Part shown: one piece after another, positions 445 to 22,322 of the stretch
Numbering within the stretch: position 1 is the first letter of the stretch
How the letters are laid out: every line of letters begins with the position of its first letter
Source: a virus
Reading direction: 5' to 3' (one strand)
Virus record (IMG/VR): IMGVR_UViG_3300034375_008105
Length of the DNA: 33,968 nucleotides
Made by a program: the position numbers and the translations under genes
Notes under the pieces: model-generated
What the model saw: only the letters and a program-made list of their open reading frames with translations
Database searches by the model: none
What the model was told of the DNA's origin: nothing

Positions 445-893
445 TATCGACCCCCAAAACCAGTAAGCAGAGTCCCGACAGCGCCAACTCGGCCGGCCTT
501 TTGCGCTTGTTTGCCTTCAAATAGACGGGCTTGACTTCCGGCAGCAGCGCCAAACTGGATGTTTAGCGCCTCCTCTTCGGCCTCTTGTGCGGTCTGTTTC
601 ATGACCTCAAGCACCGAGCCAGTACGCCGGACGCCCGACTTAGCAAAGCCTGTTTTCTGCCTCGCCAATGTGCGCTGTTTTTCTCTATCCAGCGCCTGAA
701 GATCTAAGTCTTTCTGACGCTGGATTAAATCAGACTCTTGCTTGGCAACATCTAAAGCCGCATCGCCAGCTTGAAGTTGAGCGCCTGCTTGAATGATAGG
801 CGCAGCTACGGAAGCAACATTAGCAACTGTAGAGCCAATGCTTGATGCGCTAGAAAATATATCTGCAATTGCCTTACCACACATATCAGTCAT
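444..893 (-). CDS. Virion-module protein of 149 aa, Ala/Gly/Gln-rich with coiled-coil character. Function unknown.
   Basis: ORF track. Translationally coupled on both sides within the tail/internal-protein block. Confidence 0.6.
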   Translation of the reverse strand: MTDMCGKAIADIFSSASSIGSTVANVASVAAPIIQAGAQLQAGDAALDVAKQESDLIQRQKDLDLQALDREKQRTLARQKTGFAKSGVRRTGSVLEVMKQTAQEAEEEALNIQFGAAAGSQARLFEGKQAQKAGRVGAVGTLLTGFGGR

Positions 894-13189: not shown

Positions 13190-14023
13190 TTAGGATACAA
13201 GGTCGCTTTGAGCCAATTCGCAGAAGATGCCACAACTGATGTCCGACTCGGCCTCATAGCTGCCTGCGTCTTTAGGCAGCTCTCGCAATGTTGGACGCCA
13301 ATACTGCTTTTCTAAGGGCTCGTCAGTTGCTATCAGGTGTCGGACTTTATCAGGATAGCGCTTTAGTGCCTGGGGCATTCCAATCTTGCACACCGTTCGA
13401 CCGAGATGCTCTTCCATCATAGCCATTCTTTCGTAGGCTTCTGGGAAATCGACACGTATCTTGTTCCAGTATCCTGCCTCACCCTTAACGCATCCGATAC
13501 AGTTGTTGTTCTTATACCCGAGCTTATACATGGCAGGTAGCTCGATGCCCTCTTTTGCCAAGAGAGCCAGGCAGTCCTGCTTAGCCAGGCCTTTGTCAAT
13601 CAAGGGAGCCCAGATATCAACATCGTTGTTGGCATCGATAAACTGATCAACACGACGCTGCTCTTCGACGGTATAGCCGAAAACCTGCCGATCACCTGGC
13701 TGTTCAAACTGCTTGCGCATACCTTTCTTCAGAAGCCTTGTGCAAGCAGCACCAGATGGGCCTTTTAGAAATCGCTCCTTGCGGAACACTTCGTAAATAG
13801 ACGCCTCGTATTTATGATTTCCGATTATCTGAATCTCTTGTCCAAACCACTTCTCGCACTCAGATAGGAACCTGGAATTGTCGGGATGCTCTTCACATAC
13901 TTCTGTGTATGCAATTACCAGCGGCAGCTTTTCATTCTTGTTGTTATGAGCAATGGCAAGCTTTGTAGCTACAGCAGATGCAGCCCCGCACGAAAACCAG
14001 CAGACAATTCTCTCATTACTCAT
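13190..14023 (-). CDS. PAPS-reductase-like protein (adenine nucleotide alpha-hydrolase superfamily), 277 aa.
   Basis: N-terminal VCWFSCGAASAV PP-loop-like motif, plus C-terminal cysteine pairs CIGC and CGIFC. Confidence 0.7.
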   Translation of the reverse strand: MSNERIVCWFSCGAASAVATKLAIAHNNKNEKLPLVIAYTEVCEEHPDNSRFLSECEKWFGQEIQIIGNHKYEASIYEVFRKERFLKGPSGAACTRLLKKGMRKQFEQPGDRQVFGYTVEEQRRVDQFIDANNDVDIWAPLIDKGLAKQDCLALLAKEGIELPAMYKLGYKNNNCIGCVKGEAGYWNKIRVDFPEAYERMAMMEEHLGRTVCKIGMPQALKRYPDKVRHLIATDEPLEKQYWRPTLRELPKDAGSYEAESDISCGIFCELAQSDLVS

Positions 14024-15352: not shown

Positions 15353-15540
15353 TTCCTAATCCCCATATCCATAATTAGCAGCAAACCACTTGCCGCAAAA
15401 CATACAAATCCAATATTTAATCTACGCCCACTTACCGGATATATTCCCCAGCCTATCAAGGGCGCCCCTATCATCCCCAATACTACACTCGCATATAACA
15501 TCTGCTTACTTCTTTGGTTAGTTAGGTGCCCCGGACCCAT
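15349..15540 (-). CDS. Small two-TM membrane protein (63 aa, or 50 aa from the internal ATG).
   Basis: Hydrophobic [19 protein letters not shown] and [13 protein letters not shown]. Overlaps the 3' end of the pentapeptide-repeat gene. Confidence 0.45.
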
Positions 15541-16165
15541 CTACCAGAACCGCATCGCGCAGGTTGGCATCGCGCAGGTTGGCATCGCACAGGACGGCAC
15601 CGCGCAGGTTGGCACCCCACAGGTCGGCATCGCGCAGGTCGGCATCGCACAGGTTGGCACGGCACAGGTCGGCACCCCGCAGGTCGGCACCCCGCAGGTT
15701 GCCACCGCGCAGGTCGGCACCGCGCAGGTCGGCACCGCGCAGGGTGGCACGGCACAGGTCGGCACCCCGCAGGTTGGCACCGCGCAGGTTGGCATCGCAC
15801 AGGTTGGCATCGCACAGGTTGGCATCGCACAGGTCGGCATAGCGCAGGTTGGCACCGCGCAGGTTGGCATCGCACAGGTTGGCATCGCACAGGTCGGCAT
15901 CGCGCAGGTTGGCATAGCGCAGGTTGGCATAGCGCAGGTTGGCACCGCGCAGGTTGGCACCGCGCAGGTCGGCATCGCGCAGGTTGGCACCCCGCAGGAC
16001 GGCACCGCGCAGGTCGGCACCGCGCAGGTCGGCACCCCGCAGGTTGACACCGCGCAGGTTGACACCGCGCAGGTCGGCACCGCGCAGGTCGGCACGGCAG
16101 CCGCCGTCTTCACCGTTAAGCCACTTATTATGCAGCTCTAATACTTCTTTAATATCAATATTCAT
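15518..16165 (-). CDS. Pentapeptide-repeat protein, 215 aa: a 22-aa cap, 37 uninterrupted pentapeptides, then an 8-aa tail.
   Basis: Translation reads [R/C][G/D/Y]A[D/N]L x37, for example [23 protein letters not shown]. The N-terminal cap [22 protein letters not shown] is typical of the family. GGTGAG SD. Confidence 0.9.
15545..16099. repeat. Tandem array of 37 copies of a 15-bp unit (plus-sense consensus about cgcgcaggttggcac), coding for the pentapeptide repeats.
   Basis: Visible periodicity in the raw sequence. All six frames are open across it, which accounts for the six overlapping ORFs in the track. Confidence 0.9.
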
Positions 16166-18270: not shown

Positions 18271-19635
18271 CTACAAATTAAATCCGCGACGCTGCGGCTT
18301 TGGTTTTTCAATTACTGGCAATGGCCCGTCAAATACTGCAAACCGGTTTTCTGCACCGATAAAGTTTAGAAAATCAGTACCCTTTTCGCCGTCTCGAAAC
18401 TTGGCTGTGATCAGTTCAGCAATACCCCGGAAAGGCGTGTCTTCGTTGTACACCTCATCCCTGTAGATAAACTGGATTACATCGGCGTCCTGCTCAATCT
18501 GCCCAGACTCACGAAGGTCTGACAGGATAGGCCGCTTGTCTGCCCGCTCTTCAACCTTTCGGCTTAGCTGAGACAATGCGATTACTGTGCAGTCCAATTC
18601 CTTAGCCAGCGCCTTAAGCTTTCGGCTAATACTGGACACCTCATCGAATCGGTTTTTGCACTGGCGATCCGTCAGCAGCTGAAGGTAATCAACCAGAACC
18701 AAATCTAATCCGCTTTGACGCTTCTCACGACGGCAGCGGGTGCGCAATTCGTTCACATCCAAACTGGCCTGATCATCAATTTTAATGCTGGCCTTCGTTA
18801 GCTTATGAACAACATGAGTTAATTTATGCGCCTGCTCGTCGTCAGATAGCACCTCAGCGCTTTTTAGGAGTGACAGCGGTATCTTGCCTATGTATGCAAA
18901 TAAACGCTGCGTGAGCTGTCTGGCTGGCATTTCTAGGCTTGAGATATAAACCTTGCCGCCAGCTAATCCGATATTTGCCGCCCAATTCATAGACAAAGTG
19001 GTCTTACCCATGGCAGGACGAGCAGCAACAACATAGAATTCACCGCCTTTCAGGCCCTGCAACCGCTCATCAACGTTAGTCAGTCCGGTTTCCAGTCCGT
19101 GAATGCCCGGGTTTTCATGACGGTATTCAAGAAAATCGAGATAATCCTTAACCGCTTCGACAGTGCCTATCGCCTTATCGCTGCTTGGGCCTTCATTGCC
19201 AGCGGCGGTTATGATTGCTTCCGCCTCCTGCAAGCGCTCATCGGTGTTCATGCCGTCAGTCATTAGAACCTTTTGAGCCTCAACCAGTCCGTTGAACAGA
19301 TCACGCTCCTTTGCAAACCGGATGATGATGTTAGCCCATCCCTTAATGTTTGCAGCGCTTGGCGTGTTCTGCATCAGGTCGATCACGTAATCCATGCCGC
19401 CTATATCTGCGAACAGCTCGGAATCCTTTTCTTCCAAGAATTCAGACAGGGTGATCATGTCAACAGGATGGTTCATTTCCTGCATTGCGCAGATACCGTC
19501 AAACAGTGTCCGGCTAGCCAGGTCGTAAAACATGCTTTCAGTTAACAGGCCATCAATCTCATCGTATGACTTTGGCTGAAAGATCAATCCGCCTACTACG
19601 CCTTGCTCTGCTTCGATAGAAAATAGCTCTCTCAT
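18271..19635 (-). CDS. dnaB: DnaB-type replicative helicase, 454 aa.
   Basis: N-terminal EAEQGVVGGLI, Walker A ARPAMGKTT, Walker B LVLVDYLQL, and the SGQIEQDADV motif. Confidence 0.92.
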   Translation of the reverse strand: MRELFSIEAEQGVVGGLIFQPKSYDEIDGLLTESMFYDLASRTLFDGICAMQEMNHPVDMITLSEFLEEKDSELFADIGGMDYVIDLMQNTPSAANIKGWANIIIRFAKERDLFNGLVEAQKVLMTDGMNTDERLQEAEAIITAAGNEGPSSDKAIGTVEAVKDYLDFLEYRHENPGIHGLETGLTNVDERLQGLKGGEFYVVAARPAMGKTTLSMNWAANIGLAGGKVYISSLEMPARQLTQRLFAYIGKIPLSLLKSAEVLSDDEQAHKLTHVVHKLTKASIKIDDQASLDVNELRTRCRREKRQSGLDLVLVDYLQLLTDRQCKNRFDEVSSISRKLKALAKELDCTVIALSQLSRKVEERADKRPILSDLRESGQIEQDADVIQFIYRDEVYNEDTPFRGIAELITAKFRDGEKGTDFLNFIGAENRFAVFDGPLPVIEKPKPQRRGFNL

Positions 19636-20591
19636 AAACTCCCCTCTACTACCTGCTGGACCGTTTTCTTTGAAATTATGTAGTCGTAACTAACGACTAT
19701 CCCAGCGTTGTTGTTTCCCTTGTGCCAATCAGTGGCAGATCCAAAGAAGTATTTAAAATACTCTCGTACCTTATCGTTGCTTTTCCCCATCAGATAAAAG
19801 AATGCCTTAGTGTTGGTCACACGGTTATCATCTACAACAATCTCAACAGGCCTGAATGGTTCAACCACTTCTTCGTTATAAATACTAACCACATCAATTA
19901 CATCTTGATCGGTGTCCGTGGACCAGTCTTGACTAAAGTGTTGGTCAGGCCCAAAGAACGTCGCAGCCATCTTCACAAAGTTAGTTCCAATGCTTCCTTC
20001 CTTTTCACAGAAGGCTAGATATTTTTCTGTTCCGACTTTCATATCGACCCAAGTGCTACCTTCTTTAATTCTTGCAAGGCAGGCTGAATAAGTTTTTTTC
20101 TTATTGCTACCGCCTTTTCGTTTTGGATAGATGGCCCAAATGTTTTCGAACTCATCACAATATTTATTACCTTCTTTTCCCTTATTACATTCTTGTTTGT
20201 GTACCGCCTGTTGTCCGCCTGTTGTACCGCCTGTTGTACCGCCTGTTGTACCGTCTGTTGTACCGTCCCCCTGAAAAGCCTCGTAATTACATATACTTAT
20301 GACGCTAGTTAGGTGTCCCGTTTCCTGAGCAATCATACCGTCTTTTTCAAGCTGCTCTAAAAACCTTCTAACCTTTCCTCTTGACCATTTCCACGTCTTC
20401 GAAAGGGTTATTTCTGAACGTGCCTGCTGACCTCTTTTAAGCTCAACAACCGTACTCTTAATAGATATTTTACGGTCCGTATGGCCTGCATTAAGAATGA
20501 GGTCCACCCATGCTTGCCCTTTCGAAAAAGGCTCAGAAGACCATAACCAGTGGTCAGCAATGCCGCGATGTAGTTTGATCCATCCAGCCAT
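19632..20591 (-). CDS. Replication initiator: an N-terminal winged-HTH domain, a GTT-repeat linker and a C-terminal domain (319 aa from the ATG at 20591).
   Basis: MAGWIKLHRGIADHWLW... is typical of phage DnaD/O-like initiators. ATGA coupling to dnaB. GAGG SD at 20605-20602. An alternative GTG start lies at 20618. Confidence 0.7.
   Translation of the reverse strand: MAGWIKLHRGIADHWLWSSEPFSKGQAWVDLILNAGHTDRKISIKSTVVELKRGQQARSEITLSKTWKWSRGKVRRFLEQLEKDGMIAQETGHLTSVISICNYEAFQGDGTTDGTTGGTTGGTTGGQQAVHKQECNKGKEGNKYCDEFENIWAIYPKRKGGSNKKKTYSACLARIKEGSTWVDMKVGTEKYLAFCEKEGSIGTNFVKMAATFFGPDQHFSQDWSTDTDQDVIDVVSIYNEEVVEPFRPVEIVVDDNRVTNTKAFFYLMGKSNDKVREYFKYFFGSATDWHKGNNNAGIVVSYDYIISKKTVQQVVEGSL
20201..20266. 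repeat. Five and a half tandem copies of a 12-bp unit (plus-sense gtaccgcctgtt). Iteron-like, inside the initiator gene.
   Basis: Units at 20201, 20213 (11 bp), 20224, 20236 and 20248 (one mismatch), plus a partial unit at 20260. They encode GTTDGTTGGTTGGTTGG. The AT-rich stretch 20150-20200 is adjacent. Confidence 0.85.
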
Positions 20592-20599
20592 GCTATAAT
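20591..20599 (+). promoter_or_regulatory. Extended -10 promoter element TGCTATAAT, antisense to the initiator translation-start region.
   Basis: Perfect TGnTATAAT on the plus strand, 24 nt upstream of a plus-oriented intrinsic terminator. Confidence 0.4.
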
Positions 20600-20605
20600 T
20601 ACCTC

Positions 20606-20652
20606 GTTTTTGACTCACTCTTAGCCCGTCCTAGCCGACGGGTTTATTTTTT
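20606..20652 (+). ncRNA. Candidate cis-antisense RNA of about 45 nt (oop-like), ending in an intrinsic terminator.
   Basis: Hairpin CCCGTC (20625-20630) / GACGGG (20637-20642) with a 6-nt loop, then TTTATTTTTT (20643-20652). The T-run is on the plus strand only. Confidence 0.35.
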
Positions 20653-20847
20653 CCGGTATTTAACCAGCTTTACTTTTTCGTATCCAAGCTCATCAAGGAT
20701 AGGCTGAGTAATTCCGGTCAGACCCTTAATCATGTTGTTTACTTGCTGCGGAGAAATACCCCAAACCTTTGACGCCGCAACCTGACTGCCATAATTTTTC
20801 TTAACATGGCCAAGAAGCTTCAACCGCATTGCTGTATCATCAAGCAT
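20644..20847 (-). CDS. Cro-like small HTH protein, 67 aa.
   Basis: SQVAASKVWGISPQQVNNMIKG HTH. AAGGAA SD. Confidence 0.6.
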   Translation of the reverse strand: MLDDTAMRLKLLGHVKKNYGSQVAASKVWGISPQQVNNMIKGLTGITQPILDELGYEKVKLVKYRKK

Positions 20848-20900
20848 AAACTGTTTTCCTTTTATTTACTAATGTGTTTTTACTTTACGCTAAGTGTTTA

Positions 20901-21551
20901 TTAAATAACACCCTCACTAATCAGCTTCTCGTTAATCCATACTTCACCGGCTGGCGTAAACAGTGCCTGAGAATGCCCCTGCTCTGTCTGCTTCATTTCA
21001 CCGTAGCCGCTATCTAAGAATGCCTGAATAAATACCCGGCCACGCTTTACGCTCTTGCTGTACACTCCGCCCAGTTCATCAAGAAAGCGGTTAAGCTTAA
21101 CGGCTGACATTTTGTGCTTCTGGCCGATCTGGGTAGCGGTCATTAGTGTTGAGCGTTCAACCAAGTTATCGACAAACTTAACCTTAGGGGCGGCCAGTTC
21201 TAATTGCTTGGCCTGATCTGCTGCCAGCTGTAATGCTTCTGCAAATGTGCCGGGCAACTGTGGAGCGCTCTTTGTTTCCAGCTCCTCAAGTCGGTCAATA
21301 ATCTTGGCCCGCAATCCAATACTGTAGCCAGACACCAGAAGCAAAGTTTCGCGCTTAGGAAGGTTATATTCGTCATATGTGCGGCTATTGCTCACATACT
21401 GACCAAGGTACAGATCTGTACCCTCGTTTAATTGCTCAAGCATAATACGAACGTCGCGCATTACCGTTTTATGCTCTTTGCCAGTTAGCTCTGCAATCTC
21501 GCGACTGCTCATTGTTAACTTATCTGTTTGTGCTAGTATTACGTCTTGCAT
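20901..21551 (-). CDS. Rha-family regulator / KilAC-domain antirepressor-like protein (216 aa from the ATG at 21551).
   Basis: N-terminal LTMSSREIAELTGKEHKTVMRDVR (Rha-type) and C-terminal ATQIGQKHKMSAVKLNRFLDELG (KilAC-type). AGGTG lies 6 nt upstream of the ATG. Confidence 0.75.
   Translation of the reverse strand: MQDVILAQTDKLTMSSREIAELTGKEHKTVMRDVRIMLEQLNEGTDLYLGQYVSNSRTYDEYNLPKRETLLLVSGYSIGLRAKIIDRLEELETKSAPQLPGTFAEALQLAADQAKQLELAAPKVKFVDNLVERSTLMTATQIGQKHKMSAVKLNRFLDELGGVYSKSVKRGRVFIQAFLDSGYGEMKQTEQGHSQALFTPAGEVWINEKLISEGVI
21512..21539 (+). promoter_or_regulatory. Candidate antisense promoter (Psar-like) inside the 5' end of the antirepressor-like gene.
   Basis: TTGTTA (21512-21517), 16 nt, TG-n-TAGTAT (21531-21539) on the plus strand. 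Confidence 0.35.
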
Positions 21552-21596
21552 ATGATTCACCTGTCTTTAAGGCTGCCCACCCGGCGGCCTTTTTTT
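21546..21596 (+). ncRNA. Candidate antisense RNA of about 50 nt (sar-like) covering the SD and ATG of the antirepressor-like gene. It ends in an intrinsic terminator.
   Basis: Hairpin GGCTGCC (21571-21577) / GGCGGCC (21583-21589) followed by T7 (21590-21596). The T74:G86 pair is a legal wobble only in the plus-sense RNA. Confidence 0.4.
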
Positions 21597-21735
21597 ATGC
21601 GTGCTTAATTTTCAGCTCTTTCCGCAGCATCTGCTCAATCATTACCGAAAGATTCATGCCGCGTTTCCGGGCCTCTTCCTGAGCTGCCGCCTTTACTGCT
21701 TCAGTCAGCGTTATATTTGTCGGTTTCTTTTTCAT
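21595..21735 (-). CDS. Arc/CopG-type ribbon-helix-helix (RHH) protein, 46 aa. Not in the ORF track.
   Basis: MKKKPTNITLTEAVKAAAQEEARKRGMNLSVMIEQMLRKELKIKHA. AGGAG lies 6 nt upstream. The strand-helix-Gly-helix pattern fits RHH repressors. Confidence 0.65.
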   Translation of the reverse strand: MKKKPTNITLTEAVKAAAQEEARKRGMNLSVMIEQMLRKELKIKHA

Positions 21736-21767
21736 GCTTACTCCTGTTTCCGTGTTTGTATGCAGCA

Positions 21768-21796
21768 ATAATGCGCTTTAATTATGCGCATGTCAA
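21768..21796 (-). promoter_or_regulatory. Leftward early promoter with an embedded 21-bp palindromic operator candidate.
   Basis: Minus-sense TTGACA (21796-21791), 17 nt, CATTAT (21773-21768). The spacer holds ATGCGC-N9-GCGCAT (21771-21791). Confidence 0.5.
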
Positions 21797-21810
21797 ATGC
21801 AAAATTTATC

Positions 21811-21840
21811 TTGACGTTGCGTATAAGTCTGGCTTATAGT
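21811..21840 (+). promoter_or_regulatory. Rightward early promoter.
   Basis: TTGACG (21811-21816), 18 nt, TATAGT (21835-21840), 38 nt upstream of the first plus-strand gene. Confidence 0.5.
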
Positions 21841-21877
21841 TCACCCCATCAACAACGAAACACGCAGGGGATATAGG

Positions 21878-22282
21878 ATGGTCGAGTTAAAAGAAATCTT
21901 TCTAAACCAAAATAACGTGAATGAGTGGCAGGAAGAGGATGTTCATTCTTTTCGTGGCCGCGAATGCCTTGATAAGCACATGGAGTTACACAGCGCTCTT
22001 GATGATGCTCTAGGTGGCCGCACAGATTGGGGCGGACGATATGCGTCTTGGCTAAGCAATATCGGCGTATCACATGAATCGGACGCTGGCTGGTGGAATA
22101 AAACAGCAGTCTGTCGTGAAAATCTTCTCTGCTTTGTTCAGTATTATTCAGAAGAGGAAGAAAGCGAAATGGCAAAGGCTTACGATAAGCGCAAAGAAGC
22201 TATCGAAAATCTGCCAAAGCGCTGCTCAGTAAACAGTATTGATTGCTATGTAAATATCCGCGATCTACTTGAAGACTACTAA
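21878..22282 (+). CDS. Hypothetical early protein, 134 aa.
   Basis: ORF track. GGGGATATAGG precedes the ATG. First gene of the rightward operon. Confidence 0.55.
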   Translation: MVELKEIFLNQNNVNEWQEEDVHSFRGRECLDKHMELHSALDDALGGRTDWGGRYASWLSNIGVSHESDAGWWNKTAVCRENLLCFVQYYSEEEESEMAKAYDKRKEAIENLPKRCSVNSIDCYVNIRDLLEDY

Positions 22283-22322
22283 CCGCCCACCGGGCACAAC
22301 AATCTCAGATAAGGGGATGATT

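Follow-up and report, generated by a model that had tools for sequence, protein, structure and literature searches.

The early control region of a phage known from IMG/VR record IMGVR_UViG_3300034375_008105, a stretch of 33,968 nucleotides that we call the window, probably contains a short antisense RNA gene. It is placed between a small repressor-like gene of the ribbon-helix-helix (RHH) type and an antirepressor-like gene, rha. Judged by its gene content, the phage is a lambda/P22-like podophage without cI, and it comes from marine and estuarine metagenomes. The layout of the region resembles the Pant-arc-sar-ant arrangement of the immI region of phage P22, and on balance we favour the reading that it constitutes an early circuit of this type, in which the RHH protein would regulate its own operon and the antisense RNA would limit the synthesis of Rha. 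Such a circuit at the main early promoter had been proposed in an initial annotation of the window; the layout holds and is strengthened by the comparative data presented here, but none of the three parts falls into a P22 family.

Inside the first codons of rha, on the opposite strand, there is a promoter-like sequence with an extended -10 element, P-as1, exactly as the initial annotation had described it (Table 1). It consists of TTGTTA (21512-21517), a TG (21531-21532) within the 16-nt spacer, and TAGTAT (21534-21539). About 30 nt past P-as1 follows a hairpin with a run of seven T residues, which ranks first among the terminator-like sites of the 34-kb window and whose T7 run overlaps the stop codon of the RHH gene. 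The stem had been annotated as 7 bp and is in fact 9 bp long; its T:G pair and T-run favour the + strand RNA only, as annotated. The + strand RNA folds with an energy of -15.8 kcal/mol (z -2.8), compared with -13.1 kcal/mol (z -1.0) for the complement on the - strand. The geometry of promoter and terminator predicts an antisense RNA that would start between 21543 and 21548 and would be complementary to codon 2 and the ATG of rha, its Shine-Dalgarno (SD) sequence, and the entire RHH-rha intercistronic region. In the predicted fold of this RNA the 5' part is open, the anti-SD sequence UCACCU is situated in a small loop, and the terminator hairpin comes next.

The comparison with the P22 immI record (X01916) was made in detail. 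The Rfam sar model matches P22 at 599..532 with 97.8 bits, and this match fills exactly the interval that separates the arc stop (531) from the ant ATG (600). The sar RNA is a translational repressor of ant (PMC12197685). The RNA predicted in the window likewise covers exactly the intercistronic region, from the upstream stop to the downstream start and including the SD sequence, and the geometry typical of sar, with a promoter in the 5' end of the target gene and the ribosome-binding site covered, can be read from the window sequence alone. Psar, on the antisense strand upstream of the ant start, has the sequence GTGTTA-17-TGcTATACT-ATT-CAT, with the -10 element 3 nt from the start codon; the antisense promoter of three of the Vibrio phages compared below (loci L001, L003 and L004) has the sequence TTGT(T/C)A-16-TGcTATAAT-ATT-CAT, and the first 15 nt of their rha genes are identical to those of P22 ant at 14 of 15 positions. 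As in P22, a strong promoter is followed by a first gene that encodes a small RHH protein and then by the unit for a short antisense RNA, whose promoter, of the extended -10 type, is situated within the initial codons of the following gene; that target is annotated as an antirepressor. At Pant, the 21-bp stretch 307-327, which we take to be the Arc operator, extends from the last base of the -35 element to the third base of the -10 element, as does a 21-bp palindrome in the leftward promoter of the window. Because the span of sar, Psar, and the operator placement all match, the arrangement can be called truly P22-like. There are also differences. The window unit has one terminator hairpin with a T-run, whereas sar has two stem-loops; the target encodes Rha and ANT/KilAC domains, whereas P22 Ant hits only P22_AR_N and P22_AR_C; and the unit heads a replication operon, whereas P22 immI is a separate late-region unit. 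As judged from these family assignments, the RHH gene, the antisense RNA and the antirepressor-like gene of the window are not homologues of their P22 counterparts.

No single motif of the unit beats chance alone, as promoter-like and terminator-like sites are about as numerous in the region as in shuffled sequence, and the significance of the unit therefore comes from its conservation in relatives. Loci were fetched from 4 Nahant Vibrio phages, 22 IMG/VR records, 10 prophages and 33 metagenome contigs. Directly upstream of the ribosome-binding site of rha, an antisense hairpin with a T-run, seen as a matching A-run on the sense strand, is present in the Vibrio phages, in Pasteurellaceae and Moraxella prophages, and in marine contigs. 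The terminator stems have at least eight different sequences across the lineages. The window has GGCTGCC/GGCGGCC, and relatives have GCCTCG/CGGGGC, GGCTGGCC/GGTCAGCC, GGGTTG/CAGCCC, AACCCG/CGGGTT, GCCCG/CGGGC, CCACCG/CGGTGG, CCACGG/CCGTGG and CCCACG/CGTGGG. That the elements of the window are chance matches would fit the shuffled counts and the motif TGNTATAAT, which occurs about as often as expected by chance, but with the position conserved across lineages whose sequences differ we regard this explanation as very improbable.

A census of promoters and terminators was taken over 40 distinct rha loci, obtained by collapsing near-duplicates. An antisense terminator lies upstream of rha at 21 of them. 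An antisense promoter is present at the rha start in 20 of these 21 loci, compared with 1 of the 19 loci that have no terminator (Fisher p 5e-9, uncorrected for relatedness). When all loci were taken together, 18 of 320 crudely called genes had a strong antisense terminator in the 120 nt before their start, namely 15 rha and 3 replication-initiator genes. In loci with the terminator, the antisense -10 element ends 1-11 nt short of the complement of the rha start codon. In the closest subfamily, which comprises the window, L046, L050 and L052, the residues encoded over the -10 element are VILA, LILP, LSIA and LIIQ, respectively, and the element itself reads TAGTAT, TAGAAT, TATACT and TATAAT (TAnnnT), in each case 9 nt from the start codon.

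These data bear on the possibility that the + strand hairpin is a real terminator but a mere insulator, which would keep stray antisense transcription, started at any point in rha or the replication genes, from entering the divergent early promoters and would not involve a regulatory RNA. Such a role would suit the modest match of the window antisense promoter to the consensus (8/12), and the two best terminators of the window both face the + direction inside the leftward operon. However, an insulator would not account for a promoter that accompanies the terminator at the start codon of the next gene in nearly all loci and is missing where the terminator is missing, for the retention of the antisense -10 element despite amino acid changes, or for a unit that always brackets exactly the translation-initiation region, as sar does. 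We therefore consider the insulator unlikely.

A slightly less probable alternative is that the hairpin acts in the sense mRNA, either as an RNase III or RNase E site or as a stabiliser that uncouples RHH and rha, and that the promoter motif is a by-product of AT-rich codons. The sense RNA of the window does still form most of the stem, with the energy given above, and the stems of two relatives (L011 and L033) contain no G:U pairs and are equally good in the sense direction. In contrast, all 21 loci carry the T-run on the antisense side, sense-oriented terminators occur in only 2 of the 40, and the sense fold of the window is no better than that of shuffled sequences. In 12 of 14 loci, G:U pairs make the antisense hairpin the more stable of the two complements, as they are legal in the antisense RNA only and turn into A-C mismatches on the sense side. 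Where AT-rich gamma-proteobacterial loci have no hairpin, they have no promoter either. Eight of the hairpins could be aligned, and in these, compensatory changes occur at three of nine pairs, with 90% of the cells paired compared with 29-59% in slid controls; the count is confined to these eight sequences because MAFFT alignments of the hairpins set the lineages out of register.

The closest cultured relatives of the window Rha protein are those of the Nahant Vibrio phages, with 58-73% amino acid identity. Three of these phages (MG592583, MG592600 and MG592494) share with the window the order regulator, rha, replication initiator and DnaB, as well as an antisense promoter-terminator unit at rha, and their records annotate no RNA. 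They differ from the window in the sequence of the hairpin, in the distance of the -10 element from the start codon (3 nt, compared with 9 nt in the window), and in the upstream regulator, which is a helix-turn-helix (HTH) protein in two of the three and an RHH protein in the window. Across the relatives as a whole, the gene before the antisense unit may encode an RHH, HTH_3, Phd/YefM-like, CII, CP76-type CII or Cro/YdaS protein. Because this gene varies, the unit appears to travel with rha and not with the regulator, and because the position of arc has no conserved partner, the RHH protein looks like an early regulator in the slot of Cro.

Several observations weigh against an arc-sar-ant-like circuit. 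With 8/12 consensus bases and the TGn extension, P-as1 is under the threshold of a simple promoter scan, and the bases at the expected antisense start (21545-21547) are pyrimidines. The Rfam sar model (RF00262) did not match the window at the gathering score, nor the segment 21000-22300 at E<=10. About half of the distinct rha loci have no antisense unit, and the Fisher p value overstates independence because the loci are phylogenetically related. A covariance model, R1, built from the units of 12 relatives did not find the window unit in a search of the whole window at E<=10; in a 1.4-kb search its best match was at the right place on the + strand, at 10 bits and E 0.5, but was misaligned. 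Because R1 did not recover the window unit, what the rha antisense RNAs demonstrably share is an architecture and not a common origin. Variation within the species gives no test of the motifs by avoidance of single-nucleotide polymorphisms, because the eight metagenome copies are identical. Finally, an antirepressor role of Rha is unsupported, because neither a repressor gene nor an integrase gene, including at the end of the rightward operon, was found among the open reading frames (ORFs) scanned with PHROG and Pfam, which were those of at least 100 amino acids plus several shorter ones of the early region. The initial annotation had likewise seen no integrase and no CI-like repressor.

Among the other Rfam searches, the whole window gave nothing relevant at the gathering score, and a permissive scan of 21000-22300 gave terminator look-alikes only (Phe_leader and suhB, E 6-8). 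The C4 model had no match in the window scans, and nothing was found in six relatives.

The arc-sar-ant-like circuit that we favour would operate as follows. The host sigma-70 RNA polymerase would start at two back-to-back promoters, and a dimer of RHH dimers on the 21-bp palindrome would turn down its own operon in the fashion of Cro or Arc. Within the initial codons of rha, the weaker promoter with its extended -10 element would fire in the opposite direction, and the resulting RNA of ~50 nt would stop at the strong terminator that adjoins the RHH stop codon. This RNA would pair perfectly with the start codon and the SD sequence of rha and so block the loading of ribosomes, and the duplex would probably be a substrate for RNase III. 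Synthesis of Rha could then be limited independently of the genes upstream and downstream, in the way that sar limits Ant in P22. Interference by convergent transcription may contribute as well; both RNase III cleavage and promoter interference have been discussed for pO/oop of lambda (PMC3985674).

The two divergent early promoters are the two best sigma-70 matches in the whole window and lie in a 140-bp divergent intergenic region. From its position, the leftward promoter drives the RHH gene, rha, the 67-amino acid gene, the replication genes and the genes downstream. The palindrome, which had been annotated correctly, has no mismatch and no second copy in the window; it fills the promoter spacer, reaching from the final base of the leftward -35 element to the third base of the -10 element. 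It can alternatively be written as a direct repeat, AATAATGCGC/AATTATGCGC, and is a candidate operator to which the RHH protein may bind. Repeats in or near the spacer of the early promoter were also seen in L046 (1-45), L050 (100-165) and L052 (1-110), with the sequences AGTACGcaCGTACT, TATATAtttaccATATATA and two copies of TGTACA; the first gene there is Phd/YefM-like or unclassified. These repeats fit an autoregulator in the slot of the first gene whatever its fold.

The RHH gene is the ORF of 46 codons with a good SD sequence that the initial annotation had added to the program's list. It was called by gene callers on eight metagenome contigs, and the profile search that had been suggested for it places its product in the RHH superfamily: residues 6-42 match Pfam RHH_1 (PF01402) with E 2e-6 and 27.9 bits (cut-off 20.5), CcdA is matched with E 4e-6, and DUF6364 is matched as well. 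In a PDB search the nearest solved structures were the RHH antitoxin Rv0298 (E 4e-4) and CopG (E 0.2). The annotation as an Arc-type protein is thus correct for the fold but not for the family. There was no match to the Arc/Mnt family (Pfam PF03869), the PDB search gave neither Arc nor Mnt, and the BLASTP comparison with Arc was not significant (E 0.14). The gap-free alignment with Arc that had been put forward does have the inter-helix Gly in register, but BLASTP prefers another register; neither is significant, and the alignment for this reason supports only a generic RHH fold. By these profiles the protein is CopG/antitoxin-like and outside the Arc family. The RHH protein of one relative, L003, does match PF03869 (21.5 bits).

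In the Rha protein, Pfam finds Phage_pRha (PF09669; residues 14-92, 51.6 bits) and ANT/KilAC (PF03374; residues 115-210, 49.1 bits), both above the curated cut-offs, as expected from the initial annotation of the gene and its SD sequence. The protein matches PHROG 63, 'anti-repressor Ant', with E 3e-53, and Pfam gave no match to P22_AR_N or P22_AR_C. Its combination with an RHH protein could also be read as a toxin-antitoxin-like module of two genes, in which the small DNA-binding protein, as the 'antitoxin', would keep a potentially toxic KilAC protein in check, with the antisense RNA as a second safety catch. The RHH matches to the CcdA and Rv0298 antitoxin families point in this direction, and the upstream slot of relatives holds Phd/YefM-like, XRE-type and RHH proteins, which are the usual antitoxin folds. 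Pairs of repressor and antirepressor (Bro/Ant/KilA-C) have been noted as toxin-antitoxin-like, with some Ant-domain proteins being toxic (PMC2701414). Nevertheless, the pair heads an early operon that runs into replication genes and is no stand-alone cassette, the upstream gene of the Pasteurellaceae prophages is CII or Cro, and neither an interaction partner nor toxicity is known for this Rha. We think a toxin-antitoxin module improbable, and such a reading could hold alongside the antisense mechanism.

The early operon seems to carry a second antisense RNA, so that one would be sar-like and the other oop-like. A perfect extended -10 element, TGCTATAAT (20591-20599), abuts the complement of the ATG of the replication gene (20591..20589). 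The predicted start is near 20606, just past the anti-SD sequence, and a terminator, AGCCCGTC/GACGGGTT (20623-20644) followed by TATTTTTT, lies between the 67-amino acid gene and the replication gene. It is the second-best canonical terminator (with a T-run) in the window and third on the list of the scan. The same design recurs in L007 (1790-1890) and L010 (3870-3970). Lambda pO/oop is built similarly: its CATAAT takes in the complement of the start codon of O, and transcription starts just past the anti-SD sequence; the geometry of oop, with the -10 element at the start codon, the start past the anti-SD sequence and the terminator at the 3' end of the upstream gene, is that of the second unit. 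No Rfam model detects lambda oop itself. The core of the oop terminator, GGTTGCCGCCG (lambda locus L079, 311-321), occurs in 12 of the relatives fetched (L007, L010, L017, L019, L020, L024, L025, L056, L060, L062, L066 and L067), which include several near-duplicate contigs and comprise Pasteurellaceae-type as well as marine loci. The core is invariably found on the antisense strand of the early operon, ahead of either rha or a replication gene. This distribution suggests that the core is a widely exchanged terminator module.

The unit at rha shares with oop its location as an antisense RNA within a pR-type early operon, a promoter over the start of the next gene, and an RNA that runs back toward the upstream regulator gene. 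The oop RNA overlaps 55 nt of cII and acts on the cII mRNA by way of RNase III (PMC3985674, PMC12197685). In contrast to oop, the unit at rha lies over the ribosome-binding site of the gene that follows, and the terminator sequences of the two are unrelated. Another small RNA aimed at the ribosome-binding site of an antirepressor gene is c4 of phages P1 and P7, which blocks translation by pairing around that site (PMC12197685). Unlike the RNA predicted here, c4 is processed from the transcript that also carries its targets, which lie downstream, and it works in trans through short complementary boxes.

No description of an antisense RNA for rha genes was found in the searchable literature, whose coverage excludes most subscription journals. 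A review of small RNAs in phages from 2025 includes sar, oop and c4 but nothing comparable to the unit at rha, and no Rfam family covers the unit. As a tentative generalisation, which we hold less firmly than the circuit itself, the rha genes of gamma-proteobacterial phages may carry a portable antisense 'governor', made of a start-codon promoter and a terminator, that moves by mosaic recombination whatever the upstream regulator; the groups in question are phages of Vibrionaceae, Pasteurellaceae and Moraxellaceae and uncultured marine phages. In lambdoid phages without a repressor, the sar-like and oop-like RNAs might then form a two-RNA timer of the early operon. Textbooks present sar and oop as one-off examples from two phages of E. 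coli and Salmonella. If the finding is confirmed, their design would turn out to recur as a transferable module in many prophages, environmental ones and those of veterinary pathogens, there would be a regulatory handle on the poorly understood Rha/KilAC proteins, since a gene in need of an antisense brake of its own is probably dose-sensitive, and about half of the distinct rha loci sampled would offer a new annotation target in the style of Rfam. Regulatory logic of the P22 immI type could exist in a phage with no visible repressor, which raises the question of the role of Rha there.

Table 1. Features of the early region and adjoining replication genes of the window
Feature	Position	Strand	Basis or remark
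Predicted antisense promoter P-as1, TTGTTA-16-TGcTAGTAT, extended -10, inside rha codons 5-14	21512-21539	+	Sequence
Intrinsic terminator of antisense RNA 1	21569-21596	+	9-bp stem AAGGCTGCC/GGCGGCCTT (21569-21591), 5-nt loop, T7 21590-21596
Predicted antisense RNA 1, ~50 nt	~21546-21597	+	Promoter/terminator geometry
rha gene, 216 amino acids	21551..20901	-	SD AGGTG 21562..21558; starts 43 bases past the RHH gene
RHH gene, 46 amino acids, gene 1 of leftward operon, Cro slot	21735..21595	-	GGAG 6 nt before ATG
Leftward early promoter, TTGACA-17-CATTAT, lambda pR-like position	21796..21768	-	10/12 consensus, joint best in window
Palindrome of 21 bp, ATGCGC-N9-GCGCAT	21771-21791		Exact; occurs once in window
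Rightward early promoter, TTGACG-18-TATAGT, lambda pL-like	21811-21840	+	Back to back with leftward promoter
Predicted second, oop-like antisense unit before replication gene	20591-20652	+	Extended -10 and terminator
67-amino acid gene, cII position, between rha and replication gene	20644..20847	-	Called as gene on metagenome contigs
Replication initiator gene (DnaD-like/O-like), 319 amino acids	19632..20591	-	Profile scans; metagenome gene call of 319 amino acids
DnaB gene	18271..19635	-	Pfam DnaB; directly after initiator gene

The leftward operon has the order RHH, rha, 67-amino acid gene, DnaD/O-like initiator, DnaB, NinX, NinB, HNH and RusA, and continues with terminase, portal, capsid and tail genes. 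By PHROG and Pfam, the rightward operon includes genes for an exonuclease, a Gam-like protein and SSB. Mnt and c2 are not visible in the window. Because the divergent promoters have no repressor gene between them and the rightward operon ends without an integrase gene, the RHH gene can be placed in the slot of Cro and the 67-amino acid gene in that of cII; the 67-amino acid protein gives weak HTH signals only (HTH_3, E 0.024, under the cut-off). Megablast of the region and tblastn of the 46-amino acid RHH protein against phage genomes gave no match. The exact Rha protein of the window is present on 19 marine and estuarine metagenome contigs, of which eight (L038-L045) were examined; these have the same gene order and are identical over 20560-21900 where covered.

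The start of the replication gene differs between sources. The program's ORF list (19632-20618) begins it at a GTG at 20618, which would leave the terminator hairpin just 5 nt upstream, and the metagenome gene callers picked the ATG at 20591, preceded by the SD sequence GAGG, for a protein of 319 amino acids. Within this gene, at 20190-20260, there are repeated GGT ACN codons (TTDGTTGGTTGGTTGG in the protein), which could be iteron-like or linker repeats. The rightward promoter has an inverted repeat of its own, TATAAG-N5-CTTATA (21822-21838), across the -10 element; because this is not the repeat found in the leftward promoter, another regulator may be at work there. Similar 5' leaders (AAACACG...) of the two divergent mRNAs form an inverted repeat of 12-13 nt (21745-21757 / 21851-21864) in the two 5' untranslated regions, which was set aside as being at chance level for ~200 nt. 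Two further genes of the leftward operon (13190-14023 and 15518-16165), located after the nin-like genes and before the terminase, are a PAPS-reductase-like gene and a gene for a highly repetitive protein of 215 amino acids, in which six stretches match PHROG 7713.

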